Under the pieces are notes generated by a model, which did no database searches, was not told the origin of the DNA, and worked only from the letters and a program-made list of their open reading frames with translations. The translations under genes and the position numbers were made by a program. This document shows, in pieces, positions 560-21,305 of a stretch of DNA of 64,000 nucleotides (the first letter of the stretch is position 1; the number at the start of each line of letters is the position of its first letter). Source of the stretch: an uncultured Clostridia bacterium (GTDB lineage: Bacteria > Bacillota > Clostridia > TANB77 > CAG-508); assembly GCA_947631495.1 (NCBI GenBank), contig CANRLO010000001.1:33060-97059 (forward strand). Direction: 5' to 3'.

Positions 560-1933
560 ATGCGAAAAATAGGAGTGAAAAAATTGAAGAAATCAAACGA
601 TAAAAATGAAATAAAAAAGAAAAAGAAGAAAAAAAGTATAATAGGAACAATATTTAAATTAATCCTTAGCTTACTAATCATTGCACTTATAGCCTATGCT
701 GCATATTTTGCATATGAGTATTCTAAGCACACCAAAGCAATGGAAGGAAAAGAATATGACCCACTATCTGCAACAGCTCTTGGCATTAATCCAGAAAAAC
801 TAAAAACAGTAGGAAGAATTAACATCTTATTACTAGGAGAAAGTGGAGTAGGAGATGGTTATAATTTAACAGATACCATTATAATAGCTTCTTATAATCC
901 ACAAACACAACAAGCTTCTTTACTATCTATTCCAAGAGATACTTATGTAGGAAAAAGAGATAAAAATAGTGCTACACAAAATTATTTAGCAAGTTACAAA
1001 ATGAATGCTGTTTATCGTAATGGAGAAAATTTAGAAGAAACTATTGAGTGTGTTAGCAATTTAACAGGAATAAATATAGATAATTATATTTTAGTAAATA
1101 CAGATGCTATTATTGAAATTGTAGATGCAATTGGTGGAGTTTGGTTTGATGTGCCAATTGATATGAATTATGATGATACTAACCAAGACTTACATATTCA
1201 TTTGCAAGCAGGGGAACAATTAATAGATGGTAACAAAGCAGAACAATTACTTCGTTTCCGTCATAACCAAGATTGGACATCCTATCCAACTGAATATGGT
1301 GATAACGACATTGGTAGAATGAGAACACAAAGAGCATTTATAGAAGCAACAGCAAAACAATTATTAAAAATTGAAAATGTAACAAAAGTATTAAAACTAT
1401 TAGACATAGTAAGTAATAATGTAAGAAGCAATTTAGATTTTCAAACATTAAAATATTATATTCCATATGCTTTCAAATTTGATACTTCTAATATTCTTTC
1501 AGATGTATTACCAGGAGTATCAGAACAATGCAATGGAATATGGATTTACACTGCAGATAAAACAAAAACAAAACAAATTGTACAAGATTTATTCACAGAT
1601 AAAGTTATTGTGGAAGAAGAACAAAACACTACAAATACTAATTCCATAGAGGGGGAAGTAGCAGAAAAACAAATTACAATAGAATTATTAGATGGAATAG
1701 GTAATAGTGAAGTTTTAGAACAAGTAAAAGAAAAATTAAAAGCAGCAGGATATACTATTAGCAGAAGCGGTACAACATCTTCTACAGCAAAAACTATGAT
1801 TATTAATAGAACTGAGCAAACTAATAGCGTATCAAGAAGCATAAAATCTGTTTTAGGTGTAGGAACAATTAATAATGGTTCAGATAATGCAAAAGTAGAT
1901 TATACTATTATTCTTGGAAAAGATTATAAGTAA
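560..1933 (+). CDS. LytR-CpsA-Psr (LCP) family cell-envelope phosphotransferase
   Basis: N-terminal TM anchor, then LCP core LLLGESGVGDGYNLTDTIIIASYNPQTQQASLLSIPRDTYV. Alternative in-frame TTG start at 584 behind AGGAG. Confidence 0.85.
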   Translation: MRKIGVKKLKKSNDKNEIKKKKKKKSIIGTIFKLILSLLIIALIAYAAYFAYEYSKHTKAMEGKEYDPLSATALGINPEKLKTVGRINILLLGESGVGDGYNLTDTIIIASYNPQTQQASLLSIPRDTYVGKRDKNSATQNYLASYKMNAVYRNGENLEETIECVSNLTGINIDNYILVNTDAIIEIVDAIGGVWFDVPIDMNYDDTNQDLHIHLQAGEQLIDGNKAEQLLRFRHNQDWTSYPTEYGDNDIGRMRTQRAFIEATAKQLLKIENVTKVLKLLDIVSNNVRSNLDFQTLKYYIPYAFKFDTSNILSDVLPGVSEQCNGIWIYTADKTKTKQIVQDLFTDKVIVEEEQNTTNTNSIEGEVAEKQITIELLDGIGNSEVLEQVKEKLKAAGYTISRSGTTSSTAKTMIINRTEQTNSVSRSIKSVLGVGTINNGSDNAKVDYTIILGKDYK

Positions 1934-1970
1934 ATTCCAAAATAATACAACTTGATTGCTTTAGGTTAAT

Positions 1971-2076
1971 GAAACAATAGTTGGACTTATATAATAAACA
2001 GCGAAATAATAGTTAAACTTATATAATAAACTGTGAAACAATAGTTAGGCTAGATAATTAACTACGAAATAATAAG
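1971..2076. repeat. Imperfect ~32-bp tandem repeat, about 3.3 units
   Basis: Units GAAACAATAGTTGGACTTATATAATAAACAGC / GAAATAATAGTTAAACTTATATAATAAACTGT / GAAACAATAGTTAGGCTAGATAATTAACTAC / GAAATAATAAG lie head to tail between convergent genes. Confidence 0.8.
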
Positions 2077-2143
2077 AAAAAATGTGCAATTAAAAATTAG
2101 TTGTAATTGTAAAAAAATATAAAATAAAAAATAGGGCTTAGAT

Positions 2144-3460
2144 TTAAAATCTGTGCCCTATTTTATTTTTCTTCTTTCTTCTTCTTCTATTTTTTTTATT
2201 TCCTTGTAATAAACGATATAAAAGGAATAACACAAGTACAATACAAATAATAGTTAAAAAAGTATGAAAAGCATTTGACTCTATAACATCTTCTCCAGCT
2301 AGTAAATCAGAAATATATGTATTTCCATCAACATTATAACTAATCGTTCCAATAACTGTATTTTTAGAAATAGGTGCTACTAAATCAGAAGAAATTTCAA
2401 TAGTTGGAGTAATAGAAGTATCACTAGTATCTTTTTTCAACAATAAAGTCATCTTATCTTTTACAACTACATCTAAATTTCTAGTTGAAAGACTTGCTTT
2501 AGAAATCTTTAGTTGTTTCAAAACAGAATTTTCTTCATGTATTGTATAAGTCTTATAATTATCAAAAGCATAATTAAATAAACTAATGCAATCTAAATAA
2601 CGTCCACTTAAACCATTTTCAGTTTGTTCTGCTCCTAAAATAACTACAATATATTCAACACCATCTTTTTTACTACTAGCTACAATACAGTTTTTTGCAG
2701 CATTGGTATAACCTGTTTTAATACCAGTTGCATAAGGATAATAATAATTATCTACGCTATCGCGTTCATCTGGAACGATTAAAGCATTAGTAGTACTAAA
2801 ATAACGGTCTGCTTTTGGATATAAATTAGTAGCAGGAAGTGTATATTTTGTTGTAGAAACTAATTTACGGAAAGTTTCATTCTGCATTGCATAGCGACCT
2901 AATATTGCTAAATCGTATGCACTAGAATAATGTTCTTCATTTTGAACACCATTTGGGTTGACAAAATTTGTATCTTGCATTCCAAGTTCTAATGCTTTTG
3001 TATTCATCATAGTAGAAAAACTTTCTACAGAACCAGCAATATGTTCTGCTAAAACATTTGCAGCATCATTTGCAGAAGGAATAAGAAGAATATGTAATAA
3101 TTGTTCAATGGTAAGAACTTCACCTTCTACTAAATAAGCATGAGTATAACCAAGTGGAACACTAAAAATAGCATTATGACTTACGGTTGCGGTATCTGTT
3201 AATTTACAATTCTCTAGTGTTAAAATAGCTGTCATAATTTTTGTTGTACTAGCAGGTGGAACTTTTGCATGTGCATCTTTTTCATAAATTATTTTCCCAG
3301 TAGAAGCTTCCATTAAAATACAATAAGGTGAATAAGTGCTAATAGGAGAAGTTTCTGCTAAGGATGTGGTAGAAAATAAAGAGAAGGTAAATGTTAAAAA
3401 TGTTATTAAAAATGTTAGTAAAAAAATAAAGTGCAAAAGTATTTTAGTTTTTTTATTCAT
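2144..3460 (-). CDS. Serine-type D-Ala-D-Ala carboxypeptidase (S11, PBP5/DacB-like)
   Basis: Signal peptide. SxxK (ASTTK), SxN (SANDA) and KTG (IKTGYT) motifs. C-terminal TM plus basic tail. Confidence 0.88.
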   Translation of the reverse strand: MNKKTKILLHFIFLLTFLITFLTFTFSLFSTTSLAETSPISTYSPYCILMEASTGKIIYEKDAHAKVPPASTTKIMTAILTLENCKLTDTATVSHNAIFSVPLGYTHAYLVEGEVLTIEQLLHILLIPSANDAANVLAEHIAGSVESFSTMMNTKALELGMQDTNFVNPNGVQNEEHYSSAYDLAILGRYAMQNETFRKLVSTTKYTLPATNLYPKADRYFSTTNALIVPDERDSVDNYYYPYATGIKTGYTNAAKNCIVASSKKDGVEYIVVILGAEQTENGLSGRYLDCISLFNYAFDNYKTYTIHEENSVLKQLKISKASLSTRNLDVVVKDKMTLLLKKDTSDTSITPTIEISSDLVAPISKNTVIGTISYNVDGNTYISDLLAGEDVIESNAFHTFLTIICIVLVLFLLYRLLQGNKKNRRRRKKKNKIGHRF

Positions 3461-3617
3461 AATTTCCTCATTTCTTATTTTTATTATTTAAATTTTAATT
3501 GTTAATAGTGTATGTTTTAATTTTGCATTTTATGTTAGTTATCATATCGTAACTTGTATATAAATTCAAGTATTTTAAAAATAATTAAGAAAAAAATCAT
3601 TTTTATAAGGAGGTTCT

Positions 3618-4301
3618 ATGTTAGAAGACAAAAAGAAAATATTTATTATAGGGGCAATCATTACAATTTTTATTATTGGGGGAATAATATATTATTTTGT
3701 GCAAAAAGGAGAAGAAGAATATATAGACTTTGAAGAAGAATTAAACAATAATTTTGACAATACAGTAGAAAATATAGTTCAAGATAATAATGAAGATGTA
3801 AATGAAAATAATGATATAGAAGAAAATACAAAAATTATGGTACATATATCCGGGCAAGTAGTAAATCCTGGTGTTATTACTTTAGAGGAAGGAGCAAGAG
3901 TAATTGATGCTGTTAATGCAGCGGGAGGATTAACTGCAGAAGCCGATATTAATAAAGTAAATTTAGCTTATATTTTAGCAGATGCACAAAAAATTTATAT
4001 TCCAAGCATAAAAGAAAAAGAAGATGTAGAAGTGATTTCAGAGGCAAGCGGAAGCAGTGCAGAAGTTTCAGGAAAAGAAGGCAAAAATGAGACAAAAACA
4101 GAAAATTTAATGATAAATATTAATACAGCAAGTGAAGCAGAGCTACAGAAACTACCGGGAATAGGAAGTTCTATTGCAGCAAGAATTGTAGCATATCGAA
4201 AAGAAAATGGGAAATTTACAACTATTGAAGATATTCAAAATATAAGTGGAATAGGAACAAGTAAATTTAATAATATCAAAAATTATATTTGCGTAAAATA
4301 A
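3618..4301 (+). CDS. comEA: Competence protein ComEA (SLBB + helix-hairpin-helix DNA receptor)
   Basis: AAGGAGG RBS. TM anchor, SLBB-like VHISGQVVNPGVITLEEGARVIDAVNAAGG, C-terminal HhH pair ININTASEAELQKLPGIGSSIAARIVAYRKENGKF. Confidence 0.88.
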   Translation: MLEDKKKIFIIGAIITIFIIGGIIYYFVQKGEEEYIDFEEELNNNFDNTVENIVQDNNEDVNENNDIEENTKIMVHISGQVVNPGVITLEEGARVIDAVNAAGGLTAEADINKVNLAYILADAQKIYIPSIKEKEDVEVISEASGSSAEVSGKEGKNETKTENLMININTASEAELQKLPGIGSSIAARIVAYRKENGKFTTIEDIQNISGIGTSKFNNIKNYICVK

Positions 4302-4827: not shown

Positions 4828-4903
<76 letters not shown>

Positions 4904-4911
4904 AATATTTA

Positions 4912-4954
4912 AAGCCTAGTAGAATACAAAAAATCTACTAGGCTTGCTTTTTTT
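4912..4954 (+). terminator. Rho-independent terminator after the tRNA
   Basis: 12-bp stem AAGCCTAGTAGA / TCTACTAGGCTT followed by GCTTTTTTT. Confidence 0.75.
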
Positions 4955-4967
4955 ATACAAAATATAC

Positions 4968-4996
4968 TTTTCATATATAGAGCTAAGTGATATAAT
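4968..4996 (+). promoter_or_regulatory. Candidate extended -10 promoter of the 5026-9104 operon
   Basis: TGATATAAT at 4988-4996 with a weak -35 (TTTTCA) 17 nt upstream. It lies just after the tRNA terminator. Confidence 0.4.
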
Positions 4997-5025: not shown

Positions 5026-6825
5026 ATGTCAGAAATCAAAGAAGAAATACTACAGCAATATGGAATCTATCAAAAAAGAAAATTAAAAGAAAATGAAAAG
5101 ACGGAATTGCTAAAAATCAAACAAGAGATAGAGAAAATAATAAAAATACCAATAGAAAAATTATACTTAGCAGAAGAAGCGGCATGGGGAAAAGAACCAG
5201 AAAAATCTGTTTATAGTATTTGCGTCTTAGTAGATAAAAGGACGAAAGACTTAAGTGAAAAAATAGATTTACTAATTCCTTATGCCAAAAATAAAAAAAT
5301 AGATATTGCATTAAGAGCAATGTGCCAATTTGAAAAAAGAAAGATGATACCAACAGAAAAGGATTATTATATTCATAAATATGGTATTAAAGTATATGAT
5401 AGTGGAAAAGAGACAGAAATTAATGAAAGTTTAGGAGCTACGCAATATGGAAGATATATGGAATATCATAGGGAATTCAGAAATTTTCTTCATACAAATG
5501 TAGACTATTGGATGAATGAAACTGTTAGAATATATACTTTAAAAATGGGATATGCACTTATTAGTCCAAATTCAGAATTAGAAAGAGATTGTAATTTTGC
5601 AAAATTAATAACAAAAGATAAAAAAATTATTAGCATGATAGACTCTTATTTAGAACAAACTGAAAAGAAGGAAAAAGAAAAAATATTAGATGAGTTTGAA
5701 GAATATGTGACTAGTTTAAAACAAGTAAAATTTTCAGCAAAACTAGAAGAAAAACCAACGATGAAGATATACGAAAAATTGTTAAAAAGAAAACAGAAGC
5801 AAGGAACATTAGATATAAAAACACTAACAAAAGACGATTTATATACTATGTACATTATACAAAATATTGATATTGATTTAATAGCAGAATTATATGGAGT
5901 GGAAAATAAAAGCATAAGATTCAAAAAAGATTATTGGCAAATAAAAAGAAGAGAAGCTGCCTTTACTAATACAGATGAAATAATAAAGAAAACAATAGAA
6001 TCCGCAGAAATGCAAAGCTCTAGCTATGCTTATGCTTTATTAAAGAAAAGTGGAATTATGGGCTTCGAAAAATGTACATTACCAATTCTAAAATATATGC
6101 TAGATAATGAAGTTTATTTATTAAAAGAATTTTGGCAATTTACTAAAAATGAAAAAAGTAAAGAAGAAAAATTAATTTTTGGAGATACAAAATATTCCTA
6201 TTGTAAAGCAAGTATGGCTGTAGAGCTATTATTACAAAACAACTTAATAAAAGAGGTAGATTTCAAACAATATCAAATTACAAAAGAAGGGAAGGAGTTA
6301 GTTTGGTATTGTATAGAAAATGATATAGAGCAGATTACTATTCCAATTATTAATAAAAAATTTAAACATGTTAAATATTATAACTTATATTACACAGAGG
6401 AGTATCCTACTGATATCGAAGAAGTTACATGGGAAAAATTATACAATAAATGGAATGAATATTGTAATGAAAACTTTCCTGAATTGTTAAGAAAAGAAAA
6501 TTTACCAATTGAAAATGAGGTAAAAAATGAAGAAGAGATTGCATTAGTCTGGCTTTATTTATTCTTTTTTAATTTAGAATTGAGAAATCTTTTTCCAAAG
6601 CAATGGGAAAAAACAATCTTTATAAGTATAAATGATATTTTAAATCCAATTCGACAACAAATAAAAGAAAAATCAATTTCAGTTGTTATGAAAAAAGATT
6701 TTCAATTAACTCAATTTTTAGATATTTCAAATGTAACAAAATATATAGAAATAGAAAAAGTAGAAGATATGGTAGAATATGCAGCAGTTTCCTGTGCGTA
6801 TTTAATAAAAATAAGAGAAAGGTAA
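5026..6825 (+). CDS. Hypothetical protein A (599 aa): unique N and C domains around an HTH-like + winged-helix module shared with the next gene
   Basis: AGAGGG RBS. Residues ~246-435 are paralogous to residues 1-190 of the downstream protein. No catalytic motif recognised. Confidence 0.7.
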   Translation: MSEIKEEILQQYGIYQKRKLKENEKTELLKIKQEIEKIIKIPIEKLYLAEEAAWGKEPEKSVYSICVLVDKRTKDLSEKIDLLIPYAKNKKIDIALRAMCQFEKRKMIPTEKDYYIHKYGIKVYDSGKETEINESLGATQYGRYMEYHREFRNFLHTNVDYWMNETVRIYTLKMGYALISPNSELERDCNFAKLITKDKKIISMIDSYLEQTEKKEKEKILDEFEEYVTSLKQVKFSAKLEEKPTMKIYEKLLKRKQKQGTLDIKTLTKDDLYTMYIIQNIDIDLIAELYGVENKSIRFKKDYWQIKRREAAFTNTDEIIKKTIESAEMQSSSYAYALLKKSGIMGFEKCTLPILKYMLDNEVYLLKEFWQFTKNEKSKEEKLIFGDTKYSYCKASMAVELLLQNNLIKEVDFKQYQITKEGKELVWYCIENDIEQITIPIINKKFKHVKYYNLYYTEEYPTDIEEVTWEKLYNKWNEYCNENFPELLRKENLPIENEVKNEEEIALVWLYLFFFNLELRNLFPKQWEKTIFISINDILNPIRQQIKEKSISVVMKKDFQLTQFLDISNVTKYIEIEKVEDMVEYAAVSCAYLIKIRER

Positions 6826-6828
6826 AAC

Positions 6829-8091
6829 ATGGAGATATATCAAAAATTATTAAAGCAAAAGCAAGCAGGTGAAAAAATAGAATTAAGTAATTTAACAAAA
6901 GAGGATCTTTATTTTATTTATATAGAAGAAGGTTATCTTGTTCAAGATATTGCAAATTTATTTAACACATCGCAAAACGAAATAAATAAGTTAAGAAATA
7001 AGTGGAATATAAAGGTAACCCAAGAATTCATGACAGACCGTGAAACAATGAAGTATGTTTATGAAAAGTTTGGAAGCGGTTATGAGTATGATTATCATTT
7101 ATATTTATTAAAAGAACATATGGGACTTCCTACATTCGAAGACCTATTTATTCCATTTTTAACCATATTAAAAGATAAAAAAGTTCATAATATACAAGAA
7201 TTTTGGCATTTGACAGATAAAAATTATAAAATAAGCGAAGCAGAATTACAATATTGTGTATCATCTGAAAATCCAACGTTATTTTATAGAGCCGATTGGT
7301 GTTTAGAAGCTATGTTAAAAGCAAACTTAGTAGAAGAAATCGCCTTTCGAGAATATAAAATAACGAAGCAAGGAGAAAAATTTTTAGAGGACTGTATTAA
7401 AGAAGAAGTTAATCGATTTGGCTTAGGATATTTATTAAAGAAGTGCTCTAATTCTAATCTATCTTTATCAAATAATATAAAAGAAACACAACAAAAAACA
7501 AAAAAGGAAGAAAATATTGTAAGTTCTAAGGTAGAAGAAACAAAAGAGGAACAAGAAAAAACAATCAAAGAGCAAGTTTCTAATTTAAAACAAATTGATT
7601 ATGTAGAAAATATAACAAAGAAGAAATCTTCAAATAAAAGTACAAATAAATCAAAAGCAGTAAAGACTAATTTTACGAAAATGAATGAAATAAAAACAGA
7701 CTTTGGAAAAAAATGTGAAAGAATTATTTACGAACATGAAAAAGAAAGACTAAGACAAGAAGGACAAGCAGAAAAAGCAGAACAAGTGATTTGGGCTTCT
7801 GAAGAAAAAGGAGACGGATTAGGTTATGATATTGAATCCTTTGAAAAAATAAATGATAGATATGAAAAAATATACATTGAAGTAAAAGGAACCGATAAAG
7901 ATTGTTCAGAACCATTTGATGTTAGTATTAATGAAGTGATGGTATCAGAACAATTAAAAGATTATTATTATATCTATCGTATTGCAAAAGCAAATACCAA
8001 GAAACCTATTTTTTATAAAGTAAAGGGAAGCATAGCAGAAAACTTTGATTTAACAGCAATTAAATTTAGAGCTTCTAGGAGGAGTAAATGA
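6829..8091 (+). CDS. HTH/winged-helix + DUF3883 (PD-(D/E)xK-type nuclease) domain protein B
   Basis: The C-terminus CERIIYEHEKERL...WASEEKGDGLGYDIESF...IYIEVKGT...FDVSINEV...YYIYRI matches the DUF3883 pattern. Starts 3 nt after the upstream stop. Confidence 0.75.
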   Translation: MEIYQKLLKQKQAGEKIELSNLTKEDLYFIYIEEGYLVQDIANLFNTSQNEINKLRNKWNIKVTQEFMTDRETMKYVYEKFGSGYEYDYHLYLLKEHMGLPTFEDLFIPFLTILKDKKVHNIQEFWHLTDKNYKISEAELQYCVSSENPTLFYRADWCLEAMLKANLVEEIAFREYKITKQGEKFLEDCIKEEVNRFGLGYLLKKCSNSNLSLSNNIKETQQKTKKEENIVSSKVEETKEEQEKTIKEQVSNLKQIDYVENITKKKSSNKSTNKSKAVKTNFTKMNEIKTDFGKKCERIIYEHEKERLRQEGQAEKAEQVIWASEEKGDGLGYDIESFEKINDRYEKIYIEVKGTDKDCSEPFDVSINEVMVSEQLKDYYYIYRIAKANTKKPIFYKVKGSIAENFDLTAIKFRASRRSK

Positions 8092-9104
8092 AAAAATTTG
8101 AAAATCATTATCATGAACCATTAAATTATTTGAGAGAAAAAGATATAGAATCTCCAACATGGTATGAAATTAGAGATAATTTATTAGAATGGTATATACA
8201 AGACTTTGCAGGAGACAGCATAGGAATGGATATGTTAGTAGAATATGTAAGAAAGCAAAAGAAAATAGAAAGCAATACCTTTTTTGAAAATATGGTAAAT
8301 TCAGTATTATTCTCTAAACTTTCTAAAAAAGAGCAAAAAGAAGTTTATCAAATAGCAAAAAACACTTTTATGGATGGACTATTTTATTTTGAAGAATCTT
8401 ACATATTAAATTTAGTAGAAAAAGAATCTTTAGAAAAATATATTGAAAATAATATATTAATACAAGATGAGGAAAAACTTAGATTTCAAAATATATTACT
8501 TCAGTCTTATTTAGCTGCTTGTAAAATTTATGAAGAAAAAATAGAAATAAATGATTCTTTATTTGAAAAATGGTTAGACGAAGATGGATATGAATATTTG
8601 AATCATCAAATTGAGATTTTTTATATATTTTCTATGATTCATTTGGAACTATTTAACCAGCAATATTTAAAACCAAAAATAGAAAAATTTTTAGCAAAAA
8701 TAGATACAAAAAACGATTTTACCATTGCACAATCAATAATGGACATGTATGAAATTGCAGTGGAGTTTGGAGAAGAATATCCAAGGCTTTTTCTTTCAAC
8801 AGAGGAAGATTATTGCTTTATTAAATTTTTAGGATTAGACATAGAAGGAGATATTATAGAACACGATTATGAGCCATATGAAAGTATGTTAAATATTAGA
8901 TATACTGACGAAAATGGCATCATGAAAATTGATTATACGAAAATGAAAGAAGATAAATTTTTAATGAAATGGCTAGATGAAGATGGAACTATAGAAAAAT
9001 TAGTAGAAGATTATAAAATTTTAAAGAGGATATTGAAAAAAATGCAAAAAGAATTAGATAAAGATTATTGTGATGATTGGGAGATAAAGGGATTGGGTGG
9101 TTAA
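8088..9104 (+). CDS. Hypothetical helical protein C (338 aa)
   Basis: ATGA start/stop overlap with the upstream gene and AGGAGG RBS. Acidic and helical. LRFQNILLQSYLAACKIY loosely resembles a STAND winged-helix motif, but there is no P-loop. Confidence 0.65.
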   Translation: MKKFENHYHEPLNYLREKDIESPTWYEIRDNLLEWYIQDFAGDSIGMDMLVEYVRKQKKIESNTFFENMVNSVLFSKLSKKEQKEVYQIAKNTFMDGLFYFEESYILNLVEKESLEKYIENNILIQDEEKLRFQNILLQSYLAACKIYEEKIEINDSLFEKWLDEDGYEYLNHQIEIFYIFSMIHLELFNQQYLKPKIEKFLAKIDTKNDFTIAQSIMDMYEIAVEFGEEYPRLFLSTEEDYCFIKFLGLDIEGDIIEHDYEPYESMLNIRYTDENGIMKIDYTKMKEDKFLMKWLDEDGTIEKLVEDYKILKRILKKMQKELDKDYCDDWEIKGLGG

Positions 9105-9255: not shown

Positions 9256-9573
9256 ATGGAAGAATTAATGAAAGAAATAAAACAATTTAACGAAGAAAGA
9301 GATTGGGATAAGTTTCACTCACCAGAAAATTTGGCAAAATCAATATCAATAGAGGCAGGAGAACTTTTAGAATGTTTTCAATGGGATAGTGAAAATTATA
9401 ATAAAGATGAAGTATGTGAAGAGTTAGCAGATGTATTCACATATTGTATTCAAATGGCTATGAAGTTGAATGTGAATCCTAAAGAAATAATATTAAAGAA
9501 ATTAGAGAAAACAAAGAAGAAGTATCCAGTAGAAAAAGCAAAAGGAGTAAGCACTAAATATAATAAATTATAA
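9256..9573 (+). CDS. MazG-like all-alpha nucleotide pyrophosphohydrolase (105 aa)
   Basis: EERDWDKFHSPENLAKSISIEAGELLECFQW ... ELADVFTYCIQMA, the typical MazG/YpjD-type EExxE/D signature. Confidence 0.8.
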   Translation: MEELMKEIKQFNEERDWDKFHSPENLAKSISIEAGELLECFQWDSENYNKDEVCEELADVFTYCIQMAMKLNVNPKEIILKKLEKTKKKYPVEKAKGVSTKYNKL

Positions 9574-9591
9574 AAAGTTTAAGGGGTAATA

Positions 9592-11343
9592 ATGATGAGT
9601 TCGGATTTTGAAGTTAAAGAATATGAGTTTAATGTAGACACATTAAATAATATTAATCCAAAATATATTAATTGGCCAGTAGTTTATTTAATAAATAATA
9701 ATAATAAAATTTATATTGGTGAAACATCCAATATAAAAAGTAGAATGAAACAGCATTTAGATAATCCTGATAGGAAATTTTTAAAATTAATCAATATAAT
9801 ATTTGATAAAAAATTTAATAAATCTGCGATATTAGATATAGAACAAAATTTAATCCGTATGTTCTATGCTGATACTAGATTTGATTCAAATAGTGGCATA
9901 TTAAATAAAAATAATGGTCAATCTTCTAAACATAATTATTACCAAAGAGAAATGTATTTAAATAAATTGGTAGATATATGGAAAAAACTTCAGCAGAAAA
10001 AGCTAGTTAACAATTCTTATAATAACATTATAAACTCTGATATATATAAATATTCTCCATTTATTTCATTAACCAATGAGCAAGAAGATATAATGTGTAA
10101 AATTATTAATAACATATTAGATTGTTTAGAGGGAAAAAGTACAAATGAAACTTCAATTATTACAGGATTAGCAGGGACAGGTAAAACAATTTTGGCAATA
10201 AATTTAATATATAATATAGTTAATGCAGATTTTAGCAATATTGATATCTTTGAAGATGATGAAATAGAAATTTTATCAGAATTTGACAAAACGATGCATA
10301 GACTAAGAAAATATATATTATGTAATGGAAAAATCAAAATTGGATTTGTTGTCCCAATGGAATCATTAAGAAACACACTAAATTTTGTATTTAAATCTAT
10401 AAATAGGAAAAATCTAAAAAATATTGTAATTGCTCCAGGTGATGTTACTAAGGATAACTATGATGTAATTATATGTGATGAAGCACATAGGTTAGCACAA
10501 TATAAAAATATTGCAAATATGGGATATTTTAAGAAAAAATGCAAAGAACTTGGAATTGATGAAAATATATCTACACAACTTGATTGGATAAATATAAAAT
10601 CGAAATATAAAGTACTATTTTACGATGGAAATCAAACTATTAAGGGATCAGATATACAAGCAGATAAAATAGATGAATTAATACAGAAAAATAGTGATAA
10701 ATGTTATTCGTTGACAACACAATTAAGATGTAAATTAGGAGAGTTGTTTTTAGATAATATAGATAAATTATTTAAATGTACATTAAAAAATAAAATAGAA
10801 TCATCTAAAGATTTTGAAATAAAATTATTTAATGACCCTAATAAAATGATTGAAAAGATAAAGCAACTAGATAAAGAAATGGGGCTATGTAGAAATGTTG
10901 CAGGATATGATTGGGAGTGGAAATCAAAAGGTAAAACAAATGAAGAGATAAGGAAAAAAGACTTATACGACTTTAATTTTGAAGGGAAGAAATATATATG
11001 GAATCACACAAATAAAGGTTGGATTCTTTCAAACAATGCAGTAAATGAAATTGGATGTGTGCATACAGTACAAGGTTATGACTTAAACTATGTTGGAGTA
11101 ATTATTGGACCAGATTTAAGTTATAATAAAGAAAAAAATAAAATCGAAGTTCATATAAATAAATTAAAAGATTCAAATGTAAAAAGAGGAACAGATGAAA
11201 AAATTGTACAAAATTATATAATTAATACATATAAGGTGTTGTTGGAACGAGGAATCAAAGGTTGTTATATCTATGCATGTGATGAAAGTATGCAGGAATA
11301 TTTAAAGGAACATATCGAGAATGATTATTCTAATAAAGATTAA
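9592..11343 (+). CDS. GIY-YIG nuclease fused to a DUF2075 / SF1-like P-loop ATPase
   Basis: GIY-YIG: VVYLI..KIYIGETSNIKSRMKQH..DIEQNLI. Walker A ITGLAGTGKT, Walker B VIICDEAHRL, C-terminal VHTVQGYDLNYVGVIIG (SF1 motif VI-like). Confidence 0.82.
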   Translation: MMSSDFEVKEYEFNVDTLNNINPKYINWPVVYLINNNNKIYIGETSNIKSRMKQHLDNPDRKFLKLINIIFDKKFNKSAILDIEQNLIRMFYADTRFDSNSGILNKNNGQSSKHNYYQREMYLNKLVDIWKKLQQKKLVNNSYNNIINSDIYKYSPFISLTNEQEDIMCKIINNILDCLEGKSTNETSIITGLAGTGKTILAINLIYNIVNADFSNIDIFEDDEIEILSEFDKTMHRLRKYILCNGKIKIGFVVPMESLRNTLNFVFKSINRKNLKNIVIAPGDVTKDNYDVIICDEAHRLAQYKNIANMGYFKKKCKELGIDENISTQLDWINIKSKYKVLFYDGNQTIKGSDIQADKIDELIQKNSDKCYSLTTQLRCKLGELFLDNIDKLFKCTLKNKIESSKDFEIKLFNDPNKMIEKIKQLDKEMGLCRNVAGYDWEWKSKGKTNEEIRKKDLYDFNFEGKKYIWNHTNKGWILSNNAVNEIGCVHTVQGYDLNYVGVIIGPDLSYNKEKNKIEVHINKLKDSNVKRGTDEKIVQNYIINTYKVLLERGIKGCYIYACDESMQEYLKEHIENDYSNKD

Positions 11344-11379
11344 ACGAAAATCCAATCCAATGGTTAAAGGTAAATAATT

Positions 11380-11640
11380 ATGAAAATAAAGTGTTTAATT
11401 TGTGATAGCACAATTGAATCAAAACATACACATAATTTTGTTACATGTAGATGTGATAATTGCTATATAGATGGAGGAAAAGAATATTTACATTTTGGAG
11501 GGAAAGATTTTAGCAAAATCCTAATTATTTTTGATGATGGTATAGAAATATTAGCAAGTGATGATAGAAATTACAAAAAGAAATACGAGGAATGGAAAGA
11601 AAATAAATATAAAATTAGATTAAATGACAAAAAAGACTAG
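11380..11640 (+). CDS. Small Cys-rich (zinc-ribbon-like) protein
   Basis: CLICDS...CRCDNC (CxxC ... CxC..C) in 86 aa. Co-directional, 36 nt after the ATPase gene. Confidence 0.5.
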   Translation: MKIKCLICDSTIESKHTHNFVTCRCDNCYIDGGKEYLHFGGKDFSKILIIFDDGIEILASDDRNYKKKYEEWKENKYKIRLNDKKD

Positions 11641-12225: not shown

Positions 12226-13170
12226 ATGCTAGAATTTATTGAAAAATTAGATGGAGATAGATGGGAGGAACTTTGCAATAGCTGTTATAGAAAGCGATAT
12301 CAAAGAGAAAATTACCAATATGTACCAGCAGAATATCAAGGAGATTGTGGAATAGAAGGATATACAAAAACAGGAATAGTATATCAATGCTATTATCCAG
12401 AAAAAGATTATAATGACGATGTATTATATGAACATTTAAGAGATAAAATGACGACTGATATACAAAAATTGATTGATAATGCAAAAAGAATAAAAGCAAT
12501 TGGAGTTGATAAAGTCATAGAATGGCATTTTGTGATTCCAGAATATAGGGATAAAAGGATTTTAGAGCATGCTGAGAAAAAAAGAAAAGAGGTATTAGAT
12601 GAGAAGAACAAGAAGAAATTAGATTATATTTCAAAGGATTTTAAAATCGTAGTAAAAATTATGGAAGATTTTAGAGATGAGTTATATTTTCTAATAAAGA
12701 CAGAGAAAGACTATAAATTAGATTTAGCTTTGAAACATACAAGGCAAAATATAGATTGGAAAAAATGTGATTCCGATAAAGTGAAAAATATTGAAAGAAA
12801 AATTAAAAATTTATTATCAAGTCAAAATTCAGTGATTGATGAAAATAAATTAAATGAATTAGTGAATTTGTATGTAGATTATTATTTAAAAGGTATAGAA
12901 CTATTTAACTATATACAAGATAAATTACCAGAACAATATGAGGATTTAGTAAATATTGAATATACATATGGAGATGATATAAAACAAAAATGTTTAAGTA
13001 ATAATGATAAAACATGCAATAAGAGCATTTTCGATGAAGTTCTTAGAGATTTTGAAAAAGATTTAAAGGAGGAATACAAATATTTATGGACGATGGCAAG
13101 TATTAAGGAAATAAAGAATGATCTGATAGGGAAATGGTTAGCAGAATGTCCATTAAGTTTTGTAGAATAA
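12226..13170 (+). CDS. Putative effector component (314 aa) of an ABC-3C-like three-component system
   Basis: GGGGGA RBS. N-terminal GDCGIEGYTKTGIVYQCYYP resembles the Mrr/PD-(D/E)xK GD.GID...Q.K core, with Lys replaced by Tyr. Helical C-terminal region. Confidence 0.6.
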   Translation: MLEFIEKLDGDRWEELCNSCYRKRYQRENYQYVPAEYQGDCGIEGYTKTGIVYQCYYPEKDYNDDVLYEHLRDKMTTDIQKLIDNAKRIKAIGVDKVIEWHFVIPEYRDKRILEHAEKKRKEVLDEKNKKKLDYISKDFKIVVKIMEDFRDELYFLIKTEKDYKLDLALKHTRQNIDWKKCDSDKVKNIERKIKNLLSSQNSVIDENKLNELVNLYVDYYLKGIELFNYIQDKLPEQYEDLVNIEYTYGDDIKQKCLSNNDKTCNKSIFDEVLRDFEKDLKEEYKYLWTMASIKEIKNDLIGKWLAECPLSFVE

Positions 13171-13177
13171 AAAAGGT

Positions 13178-13663
13178 ATGAGTAATGAATTAGATTTTAG
13201 AGAATTAAAATTTGTTGAAAGACCTAAAGCGATACCATATAATTATAGAATTAGTTATAGAGTAGCTCAAATTGTATTAATAATAGGTAAAACTGTAAAA
13301 AAAGGAGGATGCTCATCTTTAAAAATACAGATTATTTCACAAGCGTTAAAGAGTAATGAAAATTTTAAGGAATTATTAAAATTTACAAAAGAACAATCAT
13401 TATTTAATAATATTATTAAATTCGATCCAGCAATAAATAAGGCAATGGAGTATGCTTTAACAGATAACATTTTAGAAAAGCAAAAAGATGGGAAATTCAA
13501 ATTAACTACTTTAGGTAAAGAAATTTTTAAAGAAATAGATGAAGATAATACTTTGATGCTTATAGAAAAGAAGAATATTAAAGAAATTGCTGATAAGATA
13601 AACGAAAATAAAATTAAAGAAATCTTAGATATATGGGGGAATTATAGTGCTAAAAATAAATAG
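13178..13663 (+). CDS. Putative middle component (161 aa, winged-helix-like)
   Basis: Starts 7 nt after the effector stop and its 3' end overlaps the ATPase start by 17 nt. Ends with the wHTH-like ILEKQKDGKFKLTTLGKEIF. Confidence 0.6.
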   Translation: MSNELDFRELKFVERPKAIPYNYRISYRVAQIVLIIGKTVKKGGCSSLKIQIISQALKSNENFKELLKFTKEQSLFNNIIKFDPAINKAMEYALTDNILEKQKDGKFKLTTLGKEIFKEIDEDNTLMLIEKKNIKEIADKINENKIKEILDIWGNYSAKNK

Positions 13664-15677
13664 GTTAAAAATTATTATAACTACAGCACAAAAGAAATTT
13701 GGTTTTGATGAGAAATTTGATGAAGGATTAAATTTTATATCGAGTTATGAAAATACCAAAGGAAAAAGTTCTATAATAGAATCTATATATTATTGTTTAG
13801 GAATAGAAGAGTTAATAGGTGGAAGAAATGATAAGATTCTAAAATCAGTTTTTAGAAGCAAAATAGAATTTAATGATATAGAATATGTTCCTTTAGATTG
13901 CAAATTTTATTTAGAAATAGAAAATTCAAAGAAAAAAGTTGTTACAATAAATAGAAACACAAGTAAGATTTCTATACAAGATAGTAAATTAATAACGGTG
14001 TATGAAGGGAATATAGATGAAAGCATATCAGGGAAGAGTAGCTTTGAAGAATATTATACTAATTTACCAGGATCAGCAACACAGGAAAGAGGTTTTCATG
14101 TCTTCTTGGAAAATTTCTTAGATTGGAAATTACCAGAAATCCCAACCTATGATGAAGTTGAGCGAAAATTATATATGCAAGTGGTTTTTGCTTCTATGTT
14201 TATTGAACAAAAAAGAGGATGGTCAGATATTTTAATAGGAATACCAAATATATTTAAAATAAAGGATCCTAAAAAGAGAGTAGTAGAATTTTTGTTGGGA
14301 TTAGATACTATTGAAGTTGAGAAGAAAAAAGCATATATAAAGAAAATGGAAGAAGAGATAAATTTTAAATGGAAAAATTTGTATGAAGATATAATAGAAG
14401 AAATGAAAGAAAGTAATTGTAATTCAAATGATATTTATTTAAAACCCAAGATATTGCTAGATAATTATGTAGAGAATCTGAATATACAAGTAGAAGAAAA
14501 TGAAGAATATATAGATATAAATGAAAAAATAAATAGACTAAATGATGAAATAACAACTTTAAAGCAAACAAAACCAAGAGTTGGAATGATAAATGATAAA
14601 ATTCAAATAGAGCTTGAAGAAAATAAAGAAAAACTTAATTCACTTGAATTAGTGCTAATTAAGGAAAATGAAAAAGAAAACGCAGAGAAATTTGGATTAA
14701 ATAAGTTGAATAAAATATTAGAAAATATAAATTTGGATTTAAATAATAATAAGGATGCTAAAAAAATAATGGAACTAGGATCTATAAAAAATACAAGTAT
14801 AGGTAAAAAAGTATGTCCATTATGCAATAGTAAAATTGAAGATAGTTTATTGTTAAGCCAAAAGAATTATAATACTATGAGCATTGAAGAAAATATTGAA
14901 CATTTAAAACAACAGAAGAAATTAATAGAATATGCTATAGATAACAGAAAGCTTAATATAAACAATTATAGCGATAATAAAACAAAAATAAAATCTGAGA
15001 TTATTAAATTAAGAAGAATTATTAGAAGCCAAATAAATGACTTATATGAAAAAGATGATAGCTTATCAGAAACAAGCATATATACAAAAGTAGATTTACA
15101 AAACCAAATGGAAGAATTAGAATTATTAAAAGAAAAATATTTTAGTTATAAAAGGAAATTTTATGATTTGTCAGAAAAACTAAAGAGCGTATTAAATGAA
15201 AAAGAAAAATTGCCTAAAGATAAATTTACTGAGCAAGATAAAGAAAAAATATCTAAATTTGAACAATGCTTTAAAGAAAAAATAAAAAAGTATGGATATA
15301 AAAGTGAAAATGCATCCAATATTCAAATTTCAATGGATAAACTAATTCCAACAATAGATGGATTTGATATGAGATTTGATAATTCTGGTAGTGATAATAT
15401 TAGGGCAATTTGGGCATATACCATATCACTACTAATAGTTTCTAGAGATATGTCAGGCAACCATCCTAATATATTGATTATTGATGAGCCAATGCAACAA
15501 AGTGTTATTGAGGAAGATTTATTTTCTTTTATTGAAGATTTAAATAGAATAAGTAAAGGAATGCAAGTTATTATAGGAATGACACTTGGAAATGAAAAAC
15601 TTAAAGAAAAAATAAATGAATATAAAAATGTAAATATAATTTTATTAAAAGATAAAGCAATAAAGCCTATTGATTAA
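13647..15677 (+). CDS. ABC/SMC-Rad50-like ATPase with coiled-coil insert
   Basis: GTG start behind GGGGGA. Walker A NTKGKSSIIESIYYCLG. ~350 aa K/E/N-rich coiled coil containing CPLC. Signature-like NSGSDN, Walker B ILIIDEPMQQS. Confidence 0.8.
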   Translation: MLKINRLKIIITTAQKKFGFDEKFDEGLNFISSYENTKGKSSIIESIYYCLGIEELIGGRNDKILKSVFRSKIEFNDIEYVPLDCKFYLEIENSKKKVVTINRNTSKISIQDSKLITVYEGNIDESISGKSSFEEYYTNLPGSATQERGFHVFLENFLDWKLPEIPTYDEVERKLYMQVVFASMFIEQKRGWSDILIGIPNIFKIKDPKKRVVEFLLGLDTIEVEKKKAYIKKMEEEINFKWKNLYEDIIEEMKESNCNSNDIYLKPKILLDNYVENLNIQVEENEEYIDINEKINRLNDEITTLKQTKPRVGMINDKIQIELEENKEKLNSLELVLIKENEKENAEKFGLNKLNKILENINLDLNNNKDAKKIMELGSIKNTSIGKKVCPLCNSKIEDSLLLSQKNYNTMSIEENIEHLKQQKKLIEYAIDNRKLNINNYSDNKTKIKSEIIKLRRIIRSQINDLYEKDDSLSETSIYTKVDLQNQMEELELLKEKYFSYKRKFYDLSEKLKSVLNEKEKLPKDKFTEQDKEKISKFEQCFKEKIKKYGYKSENASNIQISMDKLIPTIDGFDMRFDNSGSDNIRAIWAYTISLLIVSRDMSGNHPNILIIDEPMQQSVIEEDLFSFIEDLNRISKGMQVIIGMTLGNEKLKEKINEYKNVNIILLKDKAIKPID

Positions 15678-15740: not shown

Positions 15741-16706
15741 ATGGGGGAAAATAAAATGTCATATAATATAGTAGAATATTTAAGAAAATTAAGTGTAGAA
15801 AATTTATTTGCAACAAATACTTTTTCAAGAGCTTGGAATGTTTGGAAAGATGAGATAAACAAATATGCTAGTAACAAAACTGCAAATCAAATATTAAATT
15901 TAGGAGACAATTTAGCTAATATATTTAGAAGTACTAGTTCAGCAGGTAGAACTCAAAGTGATGTGGCTGGTGGTGGAAATGCATGGGAATCCTTAACATG
16001 CTGGTATCTAAATTTATGTTTGATAGGAAGAAGGACAATAGTAATAAAACATCATAAAGGTTTAATTCCAAATCCAGTTAGTGATGCAATAACAGTTAAT
16101 TATTCAAATTTTGTATCAAATACAGAATCAGACTTAATTGCAATTACTTTTCCAGATGAAGAAGAATATAAGAAAAATATTGATGAAATAGATATAGAAG
16201 ATATAAATGGTAATAAAGTACAAATTTATAATGGTCAGAGAATAAATTATAAAGAAATAATAAATGCTTTATGTACTAGAGATTTTCAAAAATTAGAAAT
16301 ACATGTAATACAATGTAAAACGAATTGGAATGATAATGCACAAATACCAATGTTATGGAATATGGTATATGCAGCAAATGATTTTAAAGAGAACAACATT
16401 TCTGTAGGAAGAAATGGCTATTCTATTCATGATATAAAAAAATTTACATATTCATTTGTAACAGTACCTACAGTTAAATTAGAATCATTTAAGGCAAATA
16501 GTACAGCAGTTAAGAGGGTAATAAATTTGTCTGGAGGTAACTATTGGGGATATGCAACAAAATCTGGTATAGCAAATTCTATTAAAGAAATGTTGAGTAG
16601 AAATTTAGCTAGTGGAGCGGAAACGAACCATTTAAATACATTAAGGGAAGAACTTAATAAATTAAATGATGATTATAGTTATTTTAAAATAAATAATAAC
16701 GCATAA
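15741..16706 (+). CDS. Putative type II restriction endonuclease (PD-(D/E)xK)
   Basis: Convergent with an m5C MTase. Candidate catalytic core ESDLIAITFPDE ... EIHVIQCKTNW (D...E.K). Specificity unknown. Confidence 0.5.
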   Translation: MGENKMSYNIVEYLRKLSVENLFATNTFSRAWNVWKDEINKYASNKTANQILNLGDNLANIFRSTSSAGRTQSDVAGGGNAWESLTCWYLNLCLIGRRTIVIKHHKGLIPNPVSDAITVNYSNFVSNTESDLIAITFPDEEEYKKNIDEIDIEDINGNKVQIYNGQRINYKEIINALCTRDFQKLEIHVIQCKTNWNDNAQIPMLWNMVYAANDFKENNISVGRNGYSIHDIKKFTYSFVTVPTVKLESFKANSTAVKRVINLSGGNYWGYATKSGIANSIKEMLSRNLASGAETNHLNTLREELNKLNDDYSYFKINNNA

Positions 16707-16724: not shown

Positions 16725-18047
16725 ATTGCAATAGCAATTTGATTAGCGACAGCTCTTGCTAAAAGAGGAGGAACAGCATTTCCAACTTGCGTATATTGCG
16801 GAATTTCAACCTTTCTTCTATCTCCACCAGTTGTACGTTTTCCGTAGAAAAACAAAACTATCATCAAAAGATTGTAATCTTGCTAATTCACGTACAGAAA
16901 AAATTCTGTTTTCAAATGGTGATATATAATCATCCGGTAATGTAACAACTGTAAAAGAAGGTTTATTTCTATTAAGTTTTTTTCTCATATTTTTTTTAGT
17001 AAGTAATGTTTCTAACATATCACTAGTTATTTCTCTATTTCTAAACCTATTAATAAGATCTTCGTTAGTTAAATTATATTTTTGAGATAATAAATTTAAT
17101 AGAGCGGTTTTCCCTTCTAAATCGATCCCTTGCTCTAAAATTCTTCTTTTTAAAGCAGCTCCATCTTCTTCTTCTTTAAATAGTGAAAATCTTTCTTCTA
17201 TTATTTCTTGATGAGTCGATAATTCTATATTACAAGGAACAAAATCACACCTTATTGGATTATTATTTATATTAGGAGTTCTACCATTTTTTGAATCTAT
17301 TTGAAATTGTGTTAATACTGGATTTATTTCAGTTTTAGTTTCATCATCCGTTATTAAATCACCTATAGCTTGTAGAACAGTAACTTTATTATTTTCATCA
17401 CATATTGGTTCTGGATAATTAGGAGAGTTTTCACCCTCTGCATAAGCTATAAAAATTGCTCTTTTTCTTTTTTGCGGTACTCCATAATCTGAGGCATCAA
17501 GAACTCTAGGTGTTAGTACATTATAACCAAGTAAATTAAATTCATTTATTAAGATTGTAGGAGCAGTTGTATTTTTAGGATATTGATGTCCGGTTGTACC
17601 TGTAAAATTATCAAACTTAGTATCATTAAAACCCTCAACATTTTCCATAACAACATATCTAGGATGAAGTTCACTGATAACCCTTAAATATTCTTTGAAA
17701 AGCATATTCCTAGGATCATCTGCATTTCTTTTTCCGGCTCTACTAAATCCTTGACAAGGAGGACCACCAAAAATAGCATCAATTCTATTTGGTCTTTCTA
17801 TATGTTCTTCATTGAAAAAAGTAAGGTTATTAATACAATTCCATATAAAATCACCATTTAATTCTCTTACATCTCCTCTATGATAATAAGTATTGTATCC
17901 TTGTATTAATCCTAATTGCTCATGTCTATTCATATATGTTTTTTGAACATCAACATTTATATCACTTGAAAATAATATGTGAAAACCAGCCTGAATGATT
18001 CCCTCACTCATACCACCAGCACCACAAAATAAATCTATAGCATACAT
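16709..18047 (-). pseudogene. DNA (cytosine-5) methyltransferase, frameshifted before motifs IX/X (or an assembly error)
   Basis: Motifs I DLFCGAGG, IV GPPCQGFS, VI ENV and VIII QKRKRAIF are in frame. The annotated ORF stops at 16818. Removing base 16844 restores ...SFVFLGKRTTGGDRRKVEIPQYTQVGNAVPPLLARAVANQIAIAINNNA*. Confidence 0.85.
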
Positions 18048-20042: not shown

Positions 20043-21269
20043 ATGGAGAGAATAAAAAGAGAAGATTATTTATCTATATTAAAAAACTTCAAAGATCAAC
20101 AAATTATAAAAGTAATAACAGGAATTAGAAGATGTGGTAAGTCTACCTTATTAGAATTATTTCAAGACTATTTAAGAGAAAATGGAGTAGAAGAGAATCA
20201 AATTATATCAATCAATTTTGAAAATGCAGATTATGAAGATTTACAAGATAGAAAAAAGTTATATGAATACTTAAAATCAAAATTAGTAAAAGGTAAAAAA
20301 ACATATATATTTTTAGATGAAATTCAAAAAGTTGTTGAATTTGAAAAAACAGTAGATAGTCTTTTTATCAATAAAGATGTAGATTTGTATATAACTGGTT
20401 CAAATGCGTGGCTTTTATCGTCAGAACTCGCAACATTACTTACAGGAAGATATATAGAAATAAAAATGTTACCTCTATCATTTAAAGAATATTTGTCAGC
20501 ATTTGAAGATAAAACAGATTTATCAAGAAAATTTAGAAATTATTTACAATATAGCTCATTTCCACAAGCTATAGAATTATTTAAAATAAATCCAGAAAAT
20601 ATTAATTTGTTTTTAGATGGAATATATAATACAATTTTATTTAAGGATGTAATGCAAAGAAAAGGAATAACAGATAAAAATACTTTAGAAAGAGTAACTA
20701 AGTATTTGTATGATAACATAGGAAACAGAACAAGTATGAAAAACATAAGTGACAACATAGAAGGATTAGAAAAAAATAATTCATATAACACAGTTTCTAC
20801 TTATGTTCAGTCATTAATAGATAGTTATATTGTATATAAAGCAAATAGATACGATATAAAAGGAAAAGAATTTTTAAAAACTCAAGAAAAATATTATGCA
20901 GTAGATATAGGACTTAGATATTATATGTTAGGACAAGGCTCTGGTAAAGATATGGGACATATATTAGAAAATGTAGTCTATCTTGAATTATTAAGACGAG
21001 GGTATGAAGTTTATATTGGAAAATATGATGATTTAGAAGTGGATTTTGTGGCAAAAAATTCAGAAAATACAATCTATTATCAAGTAGCATTAAGTACAAG
21101 GGGAACTACTGATGAAAATGATAGCATATTAGAAAGAGAATTAGCACCATTAAAGAAGATAAATGATAATTATCCTAAATATATATTAACTTTAGATGAT
21201 GACTTGGATGCTGATTTTGATGGAATAAAGAAGATAAATGTATTAGATTGGCTACTTAAGAATAAATAA
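20043..21269 (+). CDS. AAA_14 + DUF4143 family ATPase
   Basis: Walker A GIRRCGKSTLL, Walker B YIFLDEIQKV, C-terminal DUF4143-like region YAVDIGLRYY. Confidence 0.8.
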   Translation: MERIKREDYLSILKNFKDQQIIKVITGIRRCGKSTLLELFQDYLRENGVEENQIISINFENADYEDLQDRKKLYEYLKSKLVKGKKTYIFLDEIQKVVEFEKTVDSLFINKDVDLYITGSNAWLLSSELATLLTGRYIEIKMLPLSFKEYLSAFEDKTDLSRKFRNYLQYSSFPQAIELFKINPENINLFLDGIYNTILFKDVMQRKGITDKNTLERVTKYLYDNIGNRTSMKNISDNIEGLEKNNSYNTVSTYVQSLIDSYIVYKANRYDIKGKEFLKTQEKYYAVDIGLRYYMLGQGSGKDMGHILENVVYLELLRRGYEVYIGKYDDLEVDFVAKNSENTIYYQVALSTRGTTDENDSILERELAPLKKINDNYPKYILTLDDDLDADFDGIKKINVLDWLLKNK

Positions 21270-21305
21270 TGTATAATATATGCATTAAGAAAGGGTGAAA
21301 AATAC

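Follow-up and report, generated by a model that had tools for sequence, protein, structure and literature searches.

A three-gene operon of uncultured Clostridia is the split form of a single-chain DUF3883 nuclease family and a candidate defence system

Three tightly coupled genes, here called A, B and C, head a defence island of an uncultured Clostridia bacterium (GenBank assembly GCA_947631495.1, contig CANRLO010000001.1). They lie in a stretch of 64,000 nucleotides (nt), positions 33,060 to 97,059 of the contig, to which we refer as the window. An original prediction, made from the letters of the window alone, had matched the architecture of the triad to no named defence system and proposed it as a candidate immunity system. 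What are the three proteins related to, and what might they do together? Comparison with other genomes showed that the architecture is no orphan: the triad is the split form of a family of single-chain nucleases, as unnamed as the triad itself, in which most of A is joined to the nuclease of B in one polypeptide.

Three coupled genes

The open reading frame (ORF) listing placed A, B and C as three coupled genes on the forward strand, exactly at the coordinates predicted (Table 1). The stop codon TAA of A is followed by AAC and then by the ATG of B, leaving a gap of 3 nt, and the TGA of B shares the sequence ATGA (8088-8091) with the ATG of C, 6 nt after an AGGAGG. The operon and its translational coupling are therefore real, as the original prediction had it. 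The ratio of nonsynonymous to synonymous substitution rates (dN/dS) was 0.16-0.29 for A, B, C and the C-terminal domain of A (A_C) alone, which indicates purifying selection. We also considered A as a decaying duplicate, and this was ruled out by its dN/dS of 0.17 (0.16 for A_C alone) and by its conservation down to ~37% identity.

Table 1. Coordinates in the window of the triad, its sub-domains and the surrounding features (aa, amino acids; HTH, helix-turn-helix).
Feature	Position	Strand	Size or residues	Description and basis
Gene A	5026-6825	+	599 aa	Putative scaffold and DNA reader without nuclease; ORF
A_N	5026-5760	+	aa 1-245	Nucleotidyltransferase-fold core (~1-130) and helical bundle (~140-230); Foldseek and motif check
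A_mid	5761-6435	+	aa 246-470	HTH and Mrr_N-like wing, then a conserved post-wing segment; paralogous to B 1-205
A_C	6436-6822	+	aa 471-599	Helical domain of the split (three-gene) form only; tblastn presence/absence, 40 loci
Gene B	6829-8091	+	420 aa	HTH, Mrr_N, K/E-rich linker and NOV_C PD-(D/E)xK nuclease; ORF, Pfam, PADLOC
B_N	6829-7443	+	aa 1-205	Second, diverged HTH and Mrr_N reader copy; monophyletic across split lineages
B nuclease domain	7699-8088	+	aa 291-420	Pfam NOV_C, motif positions
B predicted catalytic residues	E297 7717-7719; D334 7828-7830; E351 7879-7881; K353 7885-7887	+		Motif positions
Gene C	8088-9104	+	338 aa	Helical, putatively non-enzymatic partner; ORF
tRNA-Met (CAT)	4828-4903	+		Upstream boundary of the island; ARAGORN
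Intrinsic terminator of tRNA-Met	4912-4954	+		12-bp stem, 10-nt loop, then GCTTTTTTT
Promoter-like site	4968-4996	+		TTTTCA-17-TATAAT with TG (extended -10), 30 nt 5' of A; consensus match
MazG-like, GIY-YIG with DUF2075/SLFN-group-3 helicase, and DUF7695 genes	9256-11640		583 aa (helicase protein)	Follow the triad
Lamassu-like operon	12226-15677			LmuC (E 4.9e-19) and LmuB (E 1.6e-92) at 13178-15677
C5 cytosine methylase	16818-18047	-		Converges with an unannotated 321-aa ORF at 15741-16706
PDC-S01 (AAA_14/DUF4143) gene, then TOTE archaeo-eukaryotic primase (AEP) fused to SNF2/ResIII helicase	20043-23645		779 aa (primase-helicase)	PDC-S01, E 1.7e-151
Second C5 methylase	25396-26595

A nuclease in B and two copies of a DNA reader

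B had been proposed to end in a DUF3883-type PD-(D/E)xK nuclease, and to share an HTH and an Mrr_N-like wing with A; both proposals were borne out. NOV_C/DUF3883 (PF13020) matched residues 297-395 of B with 65.4 bits against a Pfam gathering score of 22.1 (expectation value (E) 5e-18), and the E-D-ExK site is intact. The predicted catalytic residues E297, D334 (in GYDI), E351 and K353 (both in IEVK) were invariant in 30 of 30 aligned homologues, both split and fused. Pfam gave no match to Mrr_cat (PF04471) in B; the nuclease is of the NOV_C type. Mrr_N was found ahead of it, at residues 103-187 (44 bits against a cutoff of 29.5, E 2.4e-11).

A single BLASTP alignment joined A 246-445 to B 1-205 at 30% identity (E 2e-23), so that B_N and A_mid are two copies of one reader. 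The winged-helix piece of A alone was sub-threshold against Mrr_N (E 0.024, profile positions 2-84 of 87). Neither B nor the A profile had a meaningful match when the PDB was searched by sequence, and a motif check found no Walker A motif in A, B or C.

In PADLOC, the linker and nuclease of B, and only these, matched the models of PDC-S36 (1.9e-34), the C-terminus of TmtA (1.2e-14) and PD-T4-1 (3e-14), and a weak match to mREase_IV covered B 98-266 (E 7.8e-4). The PDC-S36 match ran from profile position 78 to 278 of 280 and covered B 207-416, which is less than a full-length, stand-alone member. On the other hand, neither A nor C matched anything in Pfam, NCBIfam or PADLOC; each had one PHROG match of unknown function, marginal for A (E 0.069) and weak for C (E 0.0072). 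The statement that the operon resembles no named defence system thus holds for A and C and not for the nuclease of B.

A single-chain form of the same enzyme

We surveyed 40 related loci by tblastn and ORF analysis (L-numbers denote loci or contigs and P-numbers homologous proteins). Most homologues of A were single proteins of 600-715 residues that carry PF13020, and this fused form was commoner than the triad. In these proteins A(1-470) is followed by a K/E-rich linker, the pre-nuclease motif of B (EQVxNLKxI) and the nuclease of B. Their identity to the triad was 32-57% over A(1-470) and 43-72% over the nuclease. The fused form was found in L015, L021, L023, L026-L034 and L041, and examples such as P0019, P0022 and P0079 are annotated only as "DUF3883 domain-containing protein". 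None of these loci carried A_C, B_N or C. Every split lineage had all three elements, and every fused one had none of them.

Neighbour-joining trees were built from A(1-445) and from the nuclease. These distance trees, which carry no support values, were congruent, and in them the fused forms lay within the split ones: P0027 (L023) stood beside L036 and L038, and P0018-P0024 (L015 and L021) fell between L012 and the group of the window. When all reader modules were placed in one tree, the copies of B_N formed a single clade, the internal topology of which mirrors that of their A partners. Nested fused forms, congruent trees and a monophyletic B_N suggest that the split state arose once and co-diverged vertically, and that at least two in-frame deletions restored the fused gene, each presumably taking out A_C, B_N and C together.

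The relation between the two forms suggests that triad and single chain serve the same function. Since A_C, B_N and C were lost together in the fused forms, only a nuclease that is a protein of its own would need them, for assembly, for gating or for both.

A third group of relatives (L016-L019, L024, L025 and L035, with P0030 and its relatives) consists of A_N and A_mid with no detectable nuclease. P0030 ends in GHGCDIEII, which resembles a truncated start of NOV_C. It is the most widespread member, with 43 contigs and a fixed context beside Spo0A and NrdD, and it may be a domesticated or decayed copy.

The fold of A

The AlphaFold2 (AF2) model of A, computed from a 25-sequence alignment, reached a predicted local distance difference test (pLDDT) score of 85.8 and a predicted template modelling (pTM) score of 0.75. 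From N to C, it shows an alpha/beta core (~45-125) with a helical bundle behind it (140-230), then the HTH region (248-330) and the winged helix (335-431), and finally a helical C-terminal domain (469-598). The N-terminal domain had been called unrelated; instead, the model points to an ANT/MNT-like nucleotidyltransferase (NTase) fold that lacks the catalytic motif. The top Foldseek matches of A_N in the PDB were AAD(9), ANT(4'), AadA, KNTase and the MntA/MNT antitoxins, with probabilities up to 1.0, weak E-values (9e-3 to 0.5) and low TM-scores (0.3-0.5). Over residues 20-130 the model had a pLDDT of ~90 and showed the alpha/beta fold of NTases, with E-values of at least 9e-3. A Foldseek search of BFVD returned nucleotidyltransferases only, as weak matches. 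Pfam scans of A_C and A_N pieces from several lineages gave noise only.

By regular expression and family alignment, the canonical GS...DxD motif of NTases (G[SG]...D-x-[DE]) is absent from the A family, which has WGK...YSICVLVDKR at this position, without the acidic pair. A_N is therefore best described as a putative catalytically dead ANT/MNT-like scaffold or ligand-binding module, and together with the bundle it probably serves as a dimerisation or ligand-binding scaffold. Residues ~50-130 (window 5170-5420) hold a motif that is near-invariant in all split and fused homologues, WGK ... LCQFEKRK..PTE.DYYI..YG.K.YD.

Gene C and the possibility of a restrained toxin

C had been described as helical and free of a P-loop, with a stretch reminiscent of STAND winged helices. 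The first part stands: C had no Walker A motif and no NTPase match in Pfam. The putative winged helix (~aa 86-148, including LRFQNILLQSYLAACKIY) fared less well. Residues 88-136 of one homologue, P0037, gave a sub-threshold match to PF24406 (nSTAND_NTPase4; E 0.024, 15 bits against a cutoff of 27), and the other 13 members gave none; apart from scattered single sub-threshold matches, the Pfam scan of the 14 members was empty. The only residues invariant across the 14 homologues were F189, N190 and I213. The AF2 model of C, from a 7-sequence alignment, had a pLDDT of 34 and was unusable.

The C family is rare: a word-indexed search found 7 clusters, and a profile search of 1.84 billion representatives gave 11 matches, two of which (P0043 and P0044) were spurious matches to repeat or low-complexity sequence. 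The C profile found nothing in the PDB. That C might be a hidden paralogue of A was ruled out by hhalign, which gave a probability of 0.3% for the two profiles.

One possibility for such a gene set is an arrangement like that of abortive-infection (Abi) or toxin-antitoxin (TA) systems. A toxic nuclease B would be held inactive by A, C or both, released on infection, and would then degrade DNA indiscriminately and kill the cell; the nuclease-less A might occupy or compete for the sites of B, or C might sequester B. The tight coupling of the genes, which fixes stoichiometry, is in keeping with this, as are the reader in A of the same type as that of B with no nuclease attached, the lack of catalytic-looking invariant residues in C, its possible STAND-type winged helix, as found in sensor proteins, and the lack of a cognate methylase. 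However, the fused relatives join the scaffold and reader of A covalently to the nuclease with no C nearby, which argues that A_mid is the nuclease's own targeting module and not an inhibitor. A_mid and B_N, at only ~30% identity, probably read different sites, and nothing that could release B, such as a protease or a kinase, is present. We consider this explanation unlikely.

Occurrence of the triad in other genomes

The full triad was found in the window and its relatives L001 and L020, in L005, L007 and L008, in L012, L013 and L022, and in the distant loci L036 and L038. It thus recurs in at least seven divergent lineages of uncultured gut Clostridia, in differing defence neighbourhoods. 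Conservation ranged from 100% down to 25-45% identity, with all sub-domains retained. In L036 and L038, A was 37-46%, B_N 40%, the nuclease 45% and C 26-27% identical, and A_C gave a weak match of 25%. The 4-nt overlap of B and C was kept in four lineages.

Genes of the C family adjoin a split-type Mrr_N-NOV_C gene wherever the contig is long enough (L039, at 1.45 kb, is too short). In L040 (1-2077) the order is C then B: the gene ahead of a split-type B is C-like (27% identity over 216 aa, E 3.6e-9), and the contig ends before any A. The family as a whole is patchy: it was found at 16 loci in 185,579 species genomes, all of them metagenome-assembled genomes (MAGs) of uncultured Clostridia and mostly from gut. 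A scan of Joint Genome Institute (JGI) metagenomes gave no match for C and 6 distant loci for A, which matched only the N-terminal ~450 residues. Phage and plasmid collections held no relative of A or C, and the viral contigs of IMG/VR held none of A; a mobile-element origin was rejected on these grounds.

Defence neighbourhoods and the remaining alternatives

The original prediction had staked its case on the three genes occurring together elsewhere beside defence genes, and this is what we found: at least seven divergent lineages keep A, B and C together next to restriction-modification (RM), McrBC, CBASS (cyclic-oligonucleotide-based antiphage signalling) or other defence genes. The triad of L005 neighbours type I RM and AbiJ; that of L007, MmeI-type and AlwI-NOV_C RM and McrBC; that of L008, Dam methylases, HNH and PIN; that of L012, an AspBHI_N-Mrr_cat enzyme; and that of L038, CBASS Cap15/JAB. 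The fused L041 lies near type I RM, nSTAND3-Mrr_cat and Cas9. PADLOC models run on 121 neighbours of ten loci (8 fused, 2 without detectable nuclease) identified RM, mads, Dpd, Hachiman and others, a result that is qualitative and carries no background control.

In the window the operon does head a defence island, with Lamassu, C5 methylase, PDC-S01 and TOTE genes downstream of it identified by Pfam and PADLOC (Table 1). It also follows directly on the terminator of tRNA-Met, as had been claimed: the hairpin at 4912-4945 with its U-run folded with a free energy (dG) of -17.6 kcal/mol (z -5.3, 0 of 200 shuffles). The consensus scan missed this terminator because its loop exceeds 8 nt. The extended -10 promoter assigned to the operon is present as a site, and it is weak evidence of a promoter because such matches are common in AT-rich DNA (44 promoter-like sites observed against 33 expected; local GC content 26-28%). 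Neither the consensus scan nor folding showed a convincing terminator 3' of C.

Upstream of the triad, LytR, PBP5-type carboxypeptidase and ComEA-like SLBB/HHH genes flank it both in the window (560-4301) and in L005 (1-3428). The L005 lineage is 63-68% identical to the window, and its island contents differ despite the same upstream genes, which points to a conserved defence hotspot.

Downstream, a 150-nt gap with promoter-like sites separates the triad from the genes at 9256-11640; the GIY-YIG-DUF2075 gene among them lies 0.5 kb 3' of the triad. The MazG-like, GIY-YIG-DUF2075 and DUF7695 genes were rejected as members of the system on account of this gap and of a linkage that is not conserved in other lineages. 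A MazG-like gene also lies upstream of the triad of L012. The Lamassu-like operon also includes an unannotated 314-aa protein, possibly an LmuA effector without a family match. The 321-aa ORF beside the first C5 methylase may be the restriction partner of that methylase.

The methylases raise the possibility that B is a conventional restriction nuclease, of type II or similar to type IIS, which uses a nearby orphan-looking methyltransferase in trans and is blocked by modification. C5 or Dam methylase genes do lie within a few kb of the triad in the window, L007 and L008, and DUF3883 is also found fused to RE_AlwI. However, no methylase was conserved beside the triad across 8 lineages, in family or in position; the neighbouring methylases have apparent nuclease partners of their own; and fused forms occur without any methylase within 8 kb (L015 and L041). 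A partnership of this kind is quite improbable.

It could also be argued that the genes have no part in immunity and form a lineage-specific module for DNA processing or regulation in a variable region, such as a nuclease for mobile-element maintenance or recombination, or HTH regulators with a domesticated nuclease. L015 and L016 are without obvious defence neighbours, and the most widespread relatives are the nuclease-less P0030-type proteins in their housekeeping context. On the other hand, no integrase or transposase is consistently linked, the phage, plasmid and viral-contig collections gave no match, the catalytic site is strictly conserved, and a very patchily distributed triad lies repeatedly within RM, McrBC, CBASS and Lamassu neighbourhoods. 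A non-immune role is therefore highly unlikely.

A model for the triad

The explanation that we favour, with moderate confidence, is that A, B and C form a heteromeric, restriction-like DNA endonuclease without a methyltransferase, the taken-apart equivalent of the single-chain enzyme. A would be the scaffold, probably dimeric, and would carry a DNA reader, while B would contribute the second reader and the PD-(D/E)xK nuclease. C would be non-catalytic and, with A_C, would dock or license B on the scaffold. The joint presence and absence of A_C, B_N and C suggests that together they re-attach the free nuclease to A, gate it, or both. The HTH and winged-helix readers would bring the complex onto DNA, and invading DNA would be cut. 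Self would most likely be told from foreign DNA by modification-dependent (type IV-like) recognition, because no cognate methylase travels along and the reader is of the Mrr type. A role in defence is suggested by genomic context; that the proteins form a complex, what A_C and C do in it, that DNA is cut and that this depends on modification are predictions from sequence comparison.

Several points weigh against this model. Every genome that carries the family is a MAG, and two fused-form loci (L015 and L016) lie among ordinary genes. In the lineage of L005 and L006, codon 131 of A is an in-frame TAA (L005 7378-7380) that recurs in contigs of at least two samples and falls precisely where the NTase-like core meets the helical bundle. 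B and C are undamaged in that lineage; A may be inactivated there or divided into further pieces, and may thus be dispensable. The conserved LCQFEKRK...DYYI..YG..YD suggests that the supposedly dead NTase domain has kept some role in binding or catalysis. Since Mrr_N is a winged helix of a generic kind, modification dependence is a guess, and the methylase genes near several loci leave some narrow room for the partnership in trans discussed above. Physical interaction of A, B and C is a prediction, and the model of C scores poorly.

It could be speculated further that assembly is the regulated step of this split restriction enzyme. C would then be a STAND-like winged-helix sensor without the NTPase, and C and A_C would dock B onto the dead-NTase scaffold only upon a phage cue or a ligand in the NTase-like pocket. 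We regard this as rather doubtful; if true, the triad would be a heterotrimeric nuclease that is inducible and has two distinct DNA readers, without counterpart among the named defence systems.

If the heteromeric endonuclease is as we propose, uncultured gut Clostridia have in the triad a defence nuclease of three components that is unnamed and confined to them. The triad is also a natural experiment, in which related genomes carry one enzyme as a single chain or as three proteins and have lost A_C, B_N and C as a package. Pairs of fused and split forms would offer a handle on how a restriction-type nuclease is assembled and gated, on what a dead NTase fold contributes and on the role of the orphan C family. 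The fused family would also enter the defence catalogues, which now detect only its nuclease tail.

Comparison with known systems

The literature that we found mentioning DUF3883 describes neither the triad nor the fused architecture, and does not mention PDC-S36. It does provide precedents for DUF3883 in defence. YenY4I and McaZI are DUF3427-DUF3883 modification-dependent endonucleases, the nuclease of YenY4I being a proven effector of defence, and DUF3883 enzymes are sometimes paired with DUF2075 NTPases (PMC6765204). Defence by HmaA needs its NOV_C domain (PMC11232893), and PD-T4-1 is a NOV_C nuclease and proven defence effector (PMC9519451; bioRxiv 10.1101/2025.07.10.664194).

The closest relatives are the single-chain NTase-like - HTH - Mrr_N - NOV_C proteins, which share linker motifs, catalytic residues and taxa with the triad and are also found in defence islands. 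They differ in being one polypeptide that has neither A_C nor a second reader (B_N) and that goes without C. Mrr-type type IV enzymes likewise have an N-terminal Mrr_N reader followed by a PD-(D/E)xK nuclease, and no cognate methylase. In contrast to them, the triad has NOV_C in place of Mrr_cat, an extra HTH and two further proteins, and its modification dependence is only predicted. YenY4I and McaZI share with it the DUF3883 catalytic domain, the logic of a reader joined to a nuclease and the location in defence islands; however, the reader of the triad is HTH and Mrr_N, not PUA/DUF3427, there are three components, and the DUF2075 neighbour is not conserved at the other triad loci.

PDC-S36, PD-T4-1, Tiamat TmtA and HmaA resemble the triad in their nuclease, and the linker and nuclease of B match the hidden Markov models (HMMs) of the first three. 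These are single-gene systems, whereas in the triad only the nuclease matches, no NTPase or helicase is present, and A and C are unmatched. PD-T4-1 and Tiamat combine their nuclease with an NTPase, and of their models B matched just the nuclease part at the C-terminus. In its predicted shape, an NTase core with a helical bundle, A 1-245 resembles ANT/KNTase and MntA (MNT), but it has no GS...DxD, reaches TM-scores of only 0.3-0.5 and is fused to DNA-binding domains. From type I-III RM systems the triad differs in having no operon-conserved cognate methyltransferase in any of the 8 lineages. It probably works like the Mrr-type, DUF3427-DUF3883 and PD-T4-1-type nucleases and appears to belong to none of them, because it has no Mrr_cat and no NTPase, matches their HMMs only in part and is a three-gene system. 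The triad and the fused DUF3883 nuclease family are both unnamed, and the former is the split form of the latter.

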